From: an uncultured Gammaproteobacteria bacterium | GTDB taxonomy: Bacteria > Patescibacteriota > Microgenomatia > JALYQM01 | Length of the DNA stretch: 64,000 bases | NCBI GenBank assembly: GCA_964403585.1 | Contig: CAYOFQ010000001.1 | Coordinates: 268,456-332,455 of the forward strand | Direction: 5' to 3' | Shown here: positions 26,605 to 33,089 of the stretch, in pieces | Numbering within the stretch: the stretch's first letter is position 1 | Layout: each line of letters opens with the position of its first letter | Position numbers and translations under genes: made by a program | The notes under the pieces: model-generated | The model's input: the letters and a program-made list of their open reading frames with translations, nothing else | What the model was told of the DNA's origin: nothing | Database searches by the model: none

Positions 26605-26898
26605 TTAACGATCGCTTTGTGCCAAAAGTGGTGACATAATAACGTAGAGCACTACTTCATTAGACTGCACCCGCAATACACCCATTTGTACCGGAATAGT
26701 TTGTGAATCCTCAGTATCGGCCAGATACAATATCAGATCGTTATTAATATGAGTTATGAAATTCTCATGATTTGGTAAGATATCAAACGTACCGAGCAGG
26801 TTTCTCGAGGAAATCGCCCGGCATACGCCTTGAAACATAATTCCTTCAGGGCTGTGTACAATTACAAAGAGAACGTCAGATTCACGCGTTTTGTTCAT
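26605..26898 (-). CDS. atpC: F1 ATP synthase epsilon subunit (short form, beta-sandwich domain only)
   Basis: 97 aa. The beta-sandwich segment is similar to epsilon. Last gene of the alpha-gamma-beta-epsilon order. 4-bp overlap with atpD. Confidence 0.65.
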
Positions 26899-28250
26899 AG
26901 CGGTTTCTCACTCAGGTATAGAAAACTGTTTGCCTCTTTACCATCAAAGTCACCATGTAGTATGCGGGCTACATCAGTCACCGTCTGCTCCAGTGGAACA
27001 TACACTCCCGGTTTTTGTGTTTGATGCGCTACGGCGTGTAAGTCCTGTGTCATGTAGTTACGCAAAATCTGCGCACGGTGATATACTTGTCTGTTTTCAG
27101 GTGATAATTCTGATTCACCAAGGAGAGAAACGATTCGTTCTAATGCTTGAGCTTCTTTTAATAATTTCTGGGCTTCAAGGAGTGCCATATAGTGCTTTTC
27201 CCCAATAATTGACGGAACAATTGCTGAGGATTGTGAGGAAAAGAAATCAATCGCCGGGAAACGTCCCTCTTGGTAGACACTGCGGGAAACAGTTATTGCC
27301 GTATCAAGATACGGATAAATAAGCTGAACTGCATAGTCCATGGTATCGTCACCCGGTATATAGACTGCTTCAAACGTCGTAACACTATTATTTGTTGAAT
27401 ATAAGCGTTCATGAAAAAGCGACATCTCCGAAGATAATGTTGCCTGGTAACCCCCTTCGGACGGCAAAATGTTCATAACGGTAGCTAATTCCTGCCCGGC
27501 TTGCGCATAGCGGAACACATTGTCGATAAAGAACAATACATCCTTACCGAGGACATCACGGAAATACTCACTCAATGTTACCCCTGCAATTGCCGCTCGG
27601 AAGCGCAATGCGGGGTTCTCTCCCATTGTTGCAAATATTAGGCTTACCGAATTTATGACATTACTGTCCACAAAGGTTTCATATAGTTCACGACATTCCC
27701 GGATACGCTCGCCAACGCCGGCAAAAACAGACACGGCATTCTCGTGACGCTGAATAACGATATTATTGATAAGCTCGGTCAACAGGATCGTTTTACCGAC
27801 GCCGGCACCACCGAAAATACCAACCTTGCTTCCTTTGAGAATCGGGCTAAAAAAATCTATCGCTTTAATACCTGTTTCGAGCAATCCTTTCGGGCGGGTA
27901 ACATCACTGAGGCGCACGTCATGCGAAAATAAAGAGGAGCGGGCGCTATTTGTAAAAGGTGCTCCTGAATCAAGCGGTTCACCGAAAATATTCATTACTC
28001 TGCCGAGCACCTCTTCTCCTACCGGAATTGTCAGCATTTGTTTCGTATTTTGAACTATTGCCCCGCGATACAGCGACGATGTAACGGTGAGACACAAACA
28101 AAAAAGACGGTTCTGGCCAGCCGAAGAATAGACCTCCATTACCACGGAAGGGTCATTCTGTAGCTGCAGAATTTCATGCAGAGCAGGCTTCTCGCTTAAA
28201 AACTCCACCAAAACAATTTGGCCAACAATAGAAATTACGCTACCGTACAT
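26895..28250 (-). CDS. atpD: F1 ATP synthase beta subunit
   Basis: P-loop [21 protein letters not shown] and the DELS-like region are typical of F1-beta. Confidence 0.9.
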
Positions 28251-28263
28251 AGTAAGTGTATTA

Positions 28264-29121
28264 TCACTTTTTATGGTTCACGAATGCAATATTATACGCT
28301 TGACGGTTAGATTCACCATTTCGTTGTAAACGTTTTAAATTCCGTCTGGCTTGAGTTTGCTGAACGGAGCTTTCATCTAGCGCCTGTTCCAAAGTTTGGA
28401 TGCGGGAAGCATGGCGGGAAAGTTCAAACTCATATGCTGCCTGACGAAATAAAAGCCCGACTACCTGACCTGAAAAAAAGTTTTCCAATTCCTGAGGTGA
28501 AGGCTCAAGAAAAAACTTCTCTTTTGGAAACATATCTATTGGAAGGCCACCCTTATCAAAACCGGCATCACCGGGAACACTCTTTTGAATTGGCCGTTGA
28601 TCAAAAATATCATTAAATTGACCATAAAAAACAGTGATTTTTTCATACTCCAGAATATATCCCAAAATAGATAGCAAGTCTAAATAAATAATCCCGGCAT
28701 CTTTCAGGTCAAAATACTGATATGTTCGGGTGTCAGATTCATTATCGTACCGGTCTTTCCCGATACGACCGATTATCACCAGCTCATCCTGCGACTGGCG
28801 TATATAACGCATGAATGAATCATACACTTCATCAACAATCGGACCATACAGTCGTGTATTAGCAGAAAGCAGGACAGCGACACTTTTCTTTTTAGGCGTT
28901 ACCGTTGGCATTTTTTCATTCCGTTTGGTGTTAAATGCTAGTTGACTTGAAGCCTTCACATCACGATATATTTCGCCAAGCCCTTCATGAAACTGCCGGG
29001 ATTTTTCAATATACTCCCGCACATCCCGCATTTTTACCATCGAAATTTGTTGCAACCCTTCGGCTAAGGCAGCAAAGTTATTTAAAAAGGCAATTTCGGA
29101 TTTTATTTCTTTAGACCGCAT
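28264..29121 (-). CDS. atpG: F1 ATP synthase gamma subunit
   Basis: The N-terminal helix [32 protein letters not shown] and the C-terminal helix pattern match gamma. Sits between alpha and beta. Confidence 0.75.
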
Positions 29122-31661: not shown

Positions 31662-31662
31662 T

Positions 31663-32421
31663 TTAGTAATATCGTATCAGAATATACGCAATTGTATAAC
31701 CCGAAACCACCAGTACTAAGAATAATGCACCCTGAATAATCATGTTTCGCTTAATATTTCCGGAGGCTAAAGGATTCCGCCCCATTGCTTCCAGTCCTTT
31801 TGAAGTATAACGCCCGAAAAAGATAAAACACAGGATCGTGGTCACCAGCGCAATGAGTGCCCCAAGTATAAATCGCAATGAAATAACATTATTCCTGGCC
31901 AGATAATCTTTATTCGTGACACCGTTTTCGTTAAATCGTATCTCAATGAGAACCGGTATTTTACCTATTTCGTCGGTTTTCTCAGCAGTATAAGCAGCCA
32001 GCGCAGTTCCTAAAACTGTTCCACTCTTTGTCGCACGCATAGCCACACCGGGAATCGTCGAGGTAGTTATTAAATCTCCGGGCGAAATCGCCCCGTTAAT
32101 CGTACTGACTCTGACCACGGCATTCCCTTTAACATTCAGCGGATACGTCCCCGGCTTTTGGAGCCCCAGAACTATCGCCGGTTTTAGTGAAACTACACCC
32201 GTAATAGTACTGTCGTAGGGATATCTCGCCAAGTACAAACCATCCTGCGTGGTTATGATGACACTTCCATCCTGAACGTCGCTATCTTTTATCGGGACAT
32301 AGGTAGCAAAACCCAAATCCACATCCGCGGCCAGTACCTGTCGCAGTGGCATTATAGTTATAAAGATTGCGGCGCATATGAGCGCGATAAAAAACCGCCG
32401 CAAAAAGGTACAATACACCAT
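31663..32421 (-). CDS. membrane protein at the atpE/atpB position: signal anchor + ~150-aa extracytoplasmic domain + C-terminal two-helix hairpin weakly c-subunit-like
   Basis: The C-terminal hairpin ISLRFILGALIALVTTILCFIFFGRYTSKGLEAMGRNPLASGNIKRNMIIQGALFLVLVVSGYTIAYILI has the helix-loop(RNP)-helix topology of Fo-c with an R(Q/N)P loop. It lacks the Gly-rich helix-1 motif and the helix-2 carboxylate. Stop is 1 nt before the atpF start. Confidence 0.35.
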   Translation of the reverse strand: MVYCTFLRRFFIALICAAIFITIMPLRQVLAADVDLGFATYVPIKDSDVQDGSVIITTQDGLYLARYPYDSTITGVVSLKPAIVLGLQKPGTYPLNVKGNAVVRVSTINGAISPGDLITTSTIPGVAMRATKSGTVLGTALAAYTAEKTDEIGKIPVLIEIRFNENGVTNKDYLARNNVISLRFILGALIALVTTILCFIFFGRYTSKGLEAMGRNPLASGNIKRNMIIQGALFLVLVVSGYTIAYILIRYY

Positions 32422-32474
32422 ATAACTATAATAAAGTAATTACAGTAAAGTGCAAGAAAATGTTTTTAGCTCAA

Positions 32475-33089
32475 CTAATTTGTTTGACGGACAGTGCCCT
32501 GATGATTTAAATTAATCGTGGTTTGTAAAGCTGAATAATCCGTTGCCGAAATTACCATATCAATGGCCGCCGAACCGCTGGTGCTATCCAGGCGGGTACC
32601 GCTGATATCATAAATTGCCACATTTCCGCTGATCGGTTCAAAGTAAATATTCACCTCACTCGCAGTACTATATTGGTGGCTGATATCAAAGTTTGCGGGA
32701 AAGGCTTTGAACGTATAATCGTGTCGATCACAAAAATTAAAGGAAAACTGGTTAGCATACTCGGTTGCAGTCGCAGGCGGCGTCGTCTTTAATGTGCATG
32801 CCCCGGTTTCGTGTTCCCAGGTAGTTCCGTTTTTATGTACATGCACTACCCAGTAATACCGGTCGGTATTACCGGCTGCCACATCCTTGGGTACAACACC
32901 GTTAACCGCATTATTATGTGCAGTTATTAATTCTGTATAGAGTTCCTGACTCACCGTTCGCAACTCAGTCTGTGCGACATATTTTCGGTAAAATGGCACT
33001 GCTACACTAAAAATGATACCCATGATCGTTAGCACAATCAGCAGCTCAACCAGTGAAAAACCTTGTTGCCGAGAATATTTCTTAATCAT
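32475..33089 (-). CDS. type IV pilin-like protein (prepilin-type N-terminal cleavage/methylation domain)
   Basis: MIKKYSRQQG followed by FSLVELLIVLTIMGIIFSVAVPFY is the class III signal (G|FxxxE + hydrophobic helix). The ATG at 33087-33089 is chosen. The track start is 15 nt further upstream. Confidence 0.8.
   Translation of the reverse strand: MIKKYSRQQGFSLVELLIVLTIMGIIFSVAVPFYRKYVAQTELRTVSQELYTELITAHNNAVNGVVPKDVAAGNTDRYYWVVHVHKNGTTWEHETGACTLKTTPPATATEYANQFSFNFCDRHDYTFKAFPANFDISHQYSTASEVNIYFEPISGNVAIYDISGTRLDSTSGSAAIDMVISATDYSALQTTINLNHQGTVRQTN

Follow-up and report, generated by a model that had tools for sequence, protein, structure and literature searches.

The 64,000-nucleotide stretch of DNA analyzed here (hereafter the window; positions 268,456 to 332,455 of contig CAYOFQ010000001.1, assembly GCA_964403585.1) comes from an uncultured bacterium of the Microgenomatia, within the Candidate Phyla Radiation (CPR), and carries a cluster of F-type ATPase genes in which the place of subunit c, the ion-carrying ring subunit, is taken by a conserved c derivative that we call X. 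X lacks the ion-binding carboxylate and carries an additional domain that recurs in a giant fiber-like surface protein encoded next to the cluster, while the catalytic motifs of the F1 part are intact. We consider it rather probable that the cluster encodes a lineage-specific F-type ATPase without ion coupling, which hydrolyzes ATP and acts on giant surface fibers.

The listing of open reading frames (ORFs), combined with Pfam and NCBIfam family scans, placed eight genes in one direction on the minus strand, in the order pilin-X-b-delta-alpha-gamma-beta-epsilon (Table 1), which is the gene order given by an earlier reading made from the letters alone (hereafter the sequence-only reading). The junctions between the ATPase genes measured, in order, +1, -4, -11, -19, +13 and -4 nt and the spacing between the pilin gene and X 53 nt, and the junctions of 1-4 nt throughout that had been reported were therefore not borne out. 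Since the same cluster was found again in hundreds of genomes, this arrangement is not due to chance. Promoter and terminator scans of positions 26300-33400 gave scores no better than those of shuffled sequence, and neither tRNA genes nor Rfam matches were found in the window, whose gene content, including giant surface proteins, is CPR-like.

The AlphaFold2 model of X, based on an alignment of 64 sequences, had a mean predicted local distance difference test (pLDDT) score of 92.3 and consisted of an N-terminal hydrophobic helix (residues 3-23), a beta-rich domain (36-164) and a helical hairpin (170-215/217-250), i.e., the same anchor, extracytoplasmic domain and C-terminal hairpin that the sequence-only reading had recognized in this 252-aa protein. 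The N-terminal helix is probably a signal peptide, with a predicted cleavage site between ...VLA and ADV, and, because of this signal peptide, the N-terminal domain would be located outside the cell. Public gene calls begin X at Met24 (229 aa; P0001/L001 1204-1893) and lose the signal peptide; as N-terminal hydrophobic segments are kept among the X homologs, the 252-aa ORF is the better gene model. Long variants of X (487-540 aa) also exist, in which about 300 additional residues at the N-terminus precede the ectodomain and hairpin (L059 1601-3220 and L083 1486-3084; proteins P0247, P0252, P0258, P0260 and P0264).

Several lines of evidence identify X as a conserved derivative of subunit c. 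When the profile of the X family was compared with all PDB sequences, the top matches were all F-type c subunits (best match 2wie, E=2e-4), and Foldseek aligned the hairpin to c subunits with TM-scores of 0.75-0.87 and root-mean-square deviations (rmsd) of 1.3-2 Å. The NCBIfam c model NF005521 was matched by 23 of the 64 X members at E<=0.01, with no other family recurring, and the Joint Genome Institute annotation assigns several members to the COG of subunit c. The window X itself remained below the cut-offs of the c families (19.6 versus 122 bits for NF005521; 16 versus 43.95 bits for TIGR01260) and did not match PF00137, the Pfam model proposed earlier as a check, but ten of the 64 family members did so weakly. 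Moreover, X occupies the position of atpE, directly before the b gene. On this homology and synteny, X is not an unrelated gene. Of the two alternatives offered by the sequence-only reading, it is accordingly the remodeled Fo that gains support, since about 80 genomes share a conserved c derivative in the atpE slot and no a gene in the cluster.

The R-Q-P loop of subunit c contacts gamma and epsilon, and the Arg, Asn and Pro of the counterpart loop of X are invariant in all 121 X homologs. Within the second transmembrane (TM) helix, TM2, none of these 121 homologs has an Asp or Glu at any position, and the column of Leu235 is occupied exclusively by I, V, L or F, so that the missing helix-2 carboxylate noted previously for the window X, with Leu at the aligned position, is a property of the family. 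Likewise, the Gly-rich helix-1 motif (GxGxGxG) is indeed missing, and small residues (A187, A/V191, S194 and G198) form a stripe in its place; most homologs have S, T or A at position 194, and position 230 in TM2 is N in 87, H in 18 and Q in 16 homologs. Given that the RNP loop is kept and the TM2 carboxylate is gone, X would dock to F1 and be unable to carry an ion.

The F1 subunits are all recognizable, yet they score below the NCBIfam equivalog cut-offs (376.7 versus 554 bits for alpha with NF009884; Table 1 for beta); PF00006 was matched by alpha and beta at E ~1e-60 each. The motifs required for catalysis are conserved: the Walker A sequence of beta reads GGAGVGKT in 61 and GGSGVGKT in two of 63 sequences, GxGER.RE (with the catalytic Glu) and DN[IV]FR (Walker B) are maintained among the roughly 63 beta sequences, and the Arg-finger motif SVTR[VA]G is maintained among 73 alpha sequences. 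The best PDB matches were the Bacillus PS3 subunit for beta (349.7 bits) and 6q45 for alpha (272.8 bits), while the G1 subunits of M. mobile gave the lowest F-type scores for the window alpha and beta (263.6 and 235.7 bits). Being closest to canonical F1 and furthest from M. mobile G1, these two subunits point to an ordinary F-type ancestry that is independent of Mycoplasma.

The Thr-to-Arg exchange in the Walker A motif of alpha (GDRKTGKR), to which the sequence-only reading had drawn attention, is real, as it is also present in an independent metagenome-assembled genome (MAG; L005, whose X is 64% identical to the window X) and as the CGA codon lies two substitutions from any Thr codon, which excludes a sequencing error. 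The exchange is not lineage-wide, though. Only two of the 73 aligned alpha sequences, namely those of the window genome and L005, carry the Arg; 70 have T or S at this last position and one reads GDRKTGRT. The exchange is hence a quirk of a narrow clade and neither a family trait nor a hallmark of the system, the family-wide feature being that Lys replaces Gln (GDRKTGK[T/S]). Judging by non-catalytic-site mutants of Bacillus PS3, the enzymes of this clade would be expected to lose Mg-nucleotide binding at these sites and to show stronger MgADP inhibition.

The remaining subunits differ more visibly from their canonical counterparts. Epsilon is 80-109 aa long in 60 of 62 family members and so lacks its C-terminal domain. 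This domain inhibits ATP hydrolysis in bacterial F1, and its family-wide loss therefore fits a hydrolyzing enzyme. As a single sequence, the window b did not match Pfam, and the b family profile (A2, 20 sequences) had ATP synthase subunit b as all ten of its best PDB matches (best E=7.6e-8). Because the PDB b match splits into an N-terminal and a C-terminal block, the stalk helix contains an insertion of about 65 aa; the b homologs are about 225 aa long, compared to about 160 aa for canonical b. Across loci, the gene between X and delta encodes about 170-300 aa (mostly 205-240) with nearly always a single N-terminal hydrophobic helix (one locus has two N-terminal hydrophobic segments), and, since no further TM segment was predicted, it is not a-like.

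The search for atpB and atpE covered the 64-kb window and 10 kb around the X matches. No ORF of at least 120 aa in the window matched ATP-synt_A (PF00119) or ATP-synt_C in Pfam, the cluster genes of about 80 loci had no multi-TM gene among them or next to them, and neither a second ATPase gene set nor an a-like gene was present within 10 kb in any locus. The operon without canonical a and c genes that had been described for the window is thus found at about 80 loci.

X relatives were detected by profile scan in at least 371 GTDB species genomes with names such as Levy-, Roizman- and Woesebacteria, WWE3 and 'Patescibacteria', the lineages carrying the cluster being Microgenomatia and WWE3, and an exhaustive profile search (E<=1e-30) put the X family at no fewer than 750 clusters at 50% identity. 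Among 84 loci searched with family hidden Markov models (HMMs), b was found in 78, delta in 77, alpha in 79, beta in 78, gamma in 74 and epsilon in 65, missing genes being mostly a matter of contig ends, and the order X-b-delta-alpha-gamma-beta-epsilon was constant across the loci examined. We also observed a five-gene version, in which X is followed directly by alpha-gamma-beta-epsilon (X/alpha positions 4345-5109/5144 in L023, 2297-3094/3113 in L034 and 9911-10681/10726 in L057) and in which no gene with 12 TM segments lies beside X. As b and delta were not detectable in these three loci, the peripheral stalk also seems to have been lost in some lineages. In a WWE3 MAG (JAAXWF010000001.1; L030), an X homolog at about 2866-3678 is preceded by a divergent homolog of the giant protein's N-terminal part (2-2716, minus strand), and the genes after X are on the opposite strand.

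The ectodomain of X links the cluster to the giant surface protein. In Foldseek searches of BFVD, its fold matched phage preneck-appendage, tail-fiber and tail proteins (best E=4.5e-12; rmsd 2.2-2.8 Å over about 130 columns), and the PDB matches comprised 8pkh (Borrelia phage BB1), 3suc (phi29 gp12, E=2.4e-4) and 8hdt (Pam3 cement). PF23982 was matched by 26 of the 64 X members, below its cut-off, PF11962 likewise stayed below the gathering score, and X had no match in PHROG. In contrast to these phage barrels and cement proteins, with which the X ectodomain and the matching domain of the giant share their fold, the barrel of X is fused to a c-type membrane hairpin within a cellular ATPase operon. 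By BLASTP, residues 70-152 of X and 3203-3286 of the giant protein are 44% identical over 84 aa (E=3e-14), and an HMM of the X ectodomain detected this domain in the window giant at E=4e-21 and in large flanking proteins of 12 other loci (11 distinct genomes, L004 and L031 being one contig) at E=1e-12 to 1e-34. Some of these proteins are encoded upstream, in divergent or co-directional orientation, and others downstream in convergent orientation. As giant genes mostly run past the 10-kb flanks, the count of 12 loci is a lower bound. The family defined by the N-terminal 600 aa of the giant protein lies directly upstream of X and divergent from it in 41 of the 76 loci (54%) with enough flanking sequence, and further loci have such homologs at other places within the locus. 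The giant itself bears its own N-terminal signal or anchor sequence, gave weak PHROG matches to tail-spike and tail-fiber proteins, and had no Pfam match except a sub-threshold H-type lectin. The most conserved stretch of the ectodomain, positions 105-134 of X (VSTINGAISPGDLITTSTIPGVAMRATKSG), is common to the giant proteins and includes the invariant or near-invariant residues G110, D116, T119, S121, G125 and G134; it could be an interaction surface or the remnant of a Peptidase_G2-type autoprocessing site.

Given an intact F1 without the epsilon brake, a retained stator, an ion-blind X and the absence of an a gene from the cluster, we reason that chemiosmotic coupling has been lost. In the machine that we propose, the whole F1 motor and its peripheral stalk would have been retained while subunit a disappeared from the operon, and subunit c would have turned into X by keeping its F1-docking loop and acquiring an extracellular barrel at the outer end of helix 1. 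Copies of X would assemble beneath F1 into a ring whose barrels form a crown at the cell surface. ATP hydrolysis in beta could then turn or twist gamma-epsilon-X against alpha3beta3-delta-b2, and the barrels might pass this movement on to the giant tail-fiber-like protein that bears the same barrel domain, in parallel with the Mycoplasma F1-like X0 ATPases that power surface legs or the MIB-MIP system. A broader version of the proposal, namely that Microgenomatia and WWE3 have no chemiosmotic ATP synthase at all and that the ion-blind, crowned rotor drives or assembles giant fibers as an independently evolved counterpart of the Mycoplasma machines and a novel type of ATP-driven surface motor, which could possibly serve for attachment to, or movement on, host cells, is more tentative, and we regard it as less probable than its opposite.

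Several observations weigh against the proposed machine. The sequence similarity between the hairpin and c is weak, with E values of about 1e-4 to 1e-2. Aligned by hhalign with individual c sequences of I. tartaricus and E. coli, the X family gave probabilities of only 6.7% and 0.3%; as such single-sequence templates are uninformative, we based the homology on the profile comparison with the PDB, NCBIfam, structure and synteny. The domain of the giant protein is no closer to the X of its own genome than to foreign X proteins and hence gives no sign of co-evolution, so that the link between X and the giant rests on synteny (54% adjacent) and the common domain. Furthermore, L023, L034 and L057 had neither b nor delta within 10 kb on either side, even with family HMMs, and L030 has X and the giant with no F1, b or delta gene within 10 kb downstream. 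Finally, without subunit a, nothing evident would keep the b2 stator from moving along with the ring.

An alternative that shares most of this evidence is an assembly or folding machine, in which the torque and the crown of barrels provide a platform to trimerize, fold, export or anchor the giant fiber. The barrel of phage fibers is an intramolecular chaperone (IMC) or trimerization module, and the resemblance of the X ectodomain to preneck-appendage proteins, Peptidase_G2 IMC-type domains and phage fiber proteins, the same domain near the C-terminus of the giant proteins and the conserved synteny of X and giant would all suit such a role. However, the giant has its own signal or anchor and needs no special exporter, nothing here points to cleavage or chaperone activity of the barrel, and a full rotary motor with its stator seems excessive for an anchor; we therefore judge this explanation unlikely. 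Far more doubtful is an ordinary ion-translocating ATPase with its a and c genes elsewhere in the genome and X as an accessory membrane protein. F1, b and delta are all present, the search for a and c covered the window and 10-kb flanks, and reviews still treat the CPR complex V as functional, for example as a possible synthase or ion pump in a 2026 review (PMC13293708). Yet X fills the atpE slot in about 80 genomes, its invariant RNP loop would be purposeless unless X itself binds gamma or epsilon, and no locus offered a second ATPase set or an a-like gene within 10 kb. In addition, the description of a complete WWE3 genome names this operon alone, with a, b and c subunits without homology to known subunits whose function was not settled (Kantor et al., 2013; PMC3812714), and many Patescibacteria lack a complete a/c set in ProAD, where incomplete ATPase gene sets are attributed largely to genome incompleteness (PMC11738941). 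With its docking loop invariant and its synteny conserved, X is very unlikely to be a mere accessory.

Ions might also be moved in an unconventional manner, through the polar TM2 residue 230 or through Ser194 and with b alone as the stator. In favor of this, position 230 is always N, H or Q and position 194 usually S, T or A, but the Asn of most members is non-ionizable and the cluster encodes neither a-type half-channels nor the essential partner Arg. To our knowledge, no rotary ATPase moves ions without the carboxylate of c or K. ProAD, too, flags c subunits lacking it as 'non-catalytic' (PMC11738941), and we consider this mode of transport highly improbable. The same holds, if anything more strongly, for the idea that genome reduction has left behind an ATP synthase operon that is decaying and no longer functional. 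The F1 scores below all equivalog cut-offs and the WWE3 locus with X and no F1 genes nearby would be expected from decay; undisrupted reading frames across hundreds of species, catalytic motifs and an RNP loop that are invariant or nearly so, tightly packed or overlapping genes and the size of the X family would not.

The hydrolyzing, uncoupled ATPase that we favor can be compared with three known systems. With the canonical F1Fo operon (atpIBEFHAGDC) it shares the order from c onward (c'-b-delta-alpha-gamma-beta-epsilon), the catalytic motifs and Arg finger, gamma, an OSCP-type delta and a b homolog; it differs by lacking the a and atpI genes, by a c homolog that has lost the carboxylate and GxGxGxG and gained a signal peptide and an ectodomain of about 135 aa, by an epsilon without C-terminal domain and by the insertion in b. 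N-ATPase operons (atpDCQRBEFAG) are likewise divergent, lineage-specific F-type variants, but they have retained subunit a as well as a c with its carboxylate, which often binds Na+, contain atpQ and atpR and follow another order, and the window proteins scored far below the alt_F1F0 models (380.2 versus 752 bits for TIGR03305; 302.5 versus 750.5 for TIGR03324).

The closest functional parallel is found in Mycoplasma, in which the Type 2 (G1, gliding) and Type 3 (F1-like X0, MIB-MIP) systems are encoded by seven-gene clusters without Fo (PMC3369863, PMC11864180, PMC12994834) that include a protein in which a signal peptide and an ectodomain precede two C-terminal TM helices (PMC3369863, PMC12994834). 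These F1-like X0 ATPases drive the legs used in gliding or the MIB-MIP system, which cleaves antibodies (PMC3369863, PMC12994834). The CPR cluster resembles them in its seven genes, its F1-like head, its non-Fo membrane part and the genomic linkage to large surface proteins, and in both cases ATP hydrolysis presumably drives work across the membrane. Going by published descriptions, MSC_0620, MMCAP2_0577 and MMOB1650 have the same architecture as X, which in the NCBIfam scan matched c-subunit models only. However, the CPR cluster keeps b and delta, lacks the 12-TM and small cytoplasmic proteins and has a hairpin protein that is still recognizably derived from c, and the window alpha and beta stayed below the Mycoplasma models (MSC_0618/0619 and MMOB1660/1670; 388 versus 570, 264.3 versus 520, 329.6 versus 600 and 311.7 versus 850 bits). 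Given the failed NCBIfam models, the retained b and delta and the missing 12-TM protein, our reading is that the CPR system may work like the Mycoplasma F1-like X0 ATPases yet does not belong to their family.

Table 1. Features of the ATPase cluster and the neighboring giant gene in the window (positions are those of the window).
Feature	Position	Strand	Remarks
Epsilon, N-terminal beta-sandwich alone, 97 aa	26605-26898	-	PF02823 40.7 bits (cut-off 27), aa 12-83
Beta, catalytic, 451 aa	26895-28250	-	TIGR01039 418.5 bits, below cut-off 462.85
Gamma, 285 aa	28264-29121	-	PF00231 60.4 bits, cut-off 39.9
Alpha, 494 aa	29103-30587	-	PF00006 E=8.7e-61
Alpha Walker A GDRKTGKR, aa 158-165	30093-30116	-	Arg codon CGA
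Delta (OSCP), 149 aa	30577-31026	-	PF00213 35.7 bits, cut-off 22.3; profile positions 58-170 only
Subunit b homolog, 212 aa	31023-31661	-	Long helix; single TM helix at the N-terminus
X, c-derived putative rotor subunit, 252 aa	31663-32421	-	Signal peptide, ectodomain and c-like hairpin
X C-terminal hairpin, aa 170-250	31672-31914	-	Homologous to F-type subunit c
Leu235 of X, aligned to the c ion-binding carboxylate	31717-31719	-	Glu62 of 2wie falls on the same column
GRNP polar loop of X, aa 214-217	31771-31782	-	Counterpart of the c RQP/RNP loop
X ectodomain, aa 32-165 (~135 aa)	31927-32328	-	Beta-barrel of phage preneck-appendage/tail-fiber/cement type
X probable signal peptide, aa 1-31 (predicted cleavage ...VLA/ADV)	32329-32421	-	Hydrophobic helix 3-23 in the AlphaFold2 model
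Pilin-like, type IV, 209 aa	32475-33104	-	N_methyl motif, E=8.8e-9 (Pfam)
Giant fiber-like surface protein, 3593 aa	33247-44028	+	Divergently transcribed; belongs to the conserved neighborhood
X-ectodomain-like domain of the giant, aa 3203-3286	42853-43104	+	BLASTP versus X, E=3e-14

The pilin-like gene indeed lies ahead of X, as the sequence-only reading had it, but this arrangement is not conserved: the gene was present in the window and in L001, which is the same species from another sample, and missing from all 83 loci of other genomes, among them that of L005, the closest relative. We therefore regard it as a local neighbor and reject it as a component of the system. Directly downstream of the giant gene, 44098-48843 and 49132-54915 (plus strand) encode proteins of 1581 and 1927 aa, each with a DUF2341 domain and six Laminin_G_3 (concanavalin-like lectin) repeats, followed by two overlapping ORFs (54934-56439 and 56270-58288, plus strand) with DUF4901 (YcdB/YcdC repeat) domains, the former with an additional C-terminal Rce1-like CAAX protease domain. 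Elsewhere in the window, 18997-21219 (plus strand) encodes a class II tRNA synthetase of the Asp/Lys/Asn type (anticodon OB and tRNA-synt_2) with a C-terminal B3/4 domain (E=1.1e-23), an unusual fusion since B3/4 normally belongs to the beta subunit of phenylalanyl-tRNA synthetase. The ORFs of a PMT_2 glycosyltransferase (13516-14670) and an alanyl-tRNA synthetase (14421-16676, GTG start), both on the plus strand, overlap by about 250 nt as listed; because the Pfam match of the latter begins at aa 96, its true start probably lies further downstream.

To date, little has been written about this system. Searches of the literature on Patescibacteria or CPR for F1-like ATPases, c-rings and atpB/atpE returned no account beyond one paragraph in Kantor et al. 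(2013), so that the system was noticed in passing in 2013 and never analyzed. Meanwhile, metabolic reconstructions and reviews of the CPR take the presence of alpha, beta and gamma genes as evidence of a working synthase or pump (PMC13293708). This inference is probably wrong for hundreds of Microgenomatia and WWE3 species, which would change the view of how these cells produce ATP and maintain their membrane potential. The CPR cluster also provides an independent and far more widespread example alongside the Mycoplasma machines and, because descent from c, b and delta is still visible in it, can illustrate how a rotary synthase becomes a mechanical device. A c-type ring with an ectodomain common to the neighboring 3593-aa fiber is a directly testable structural hypothesis.

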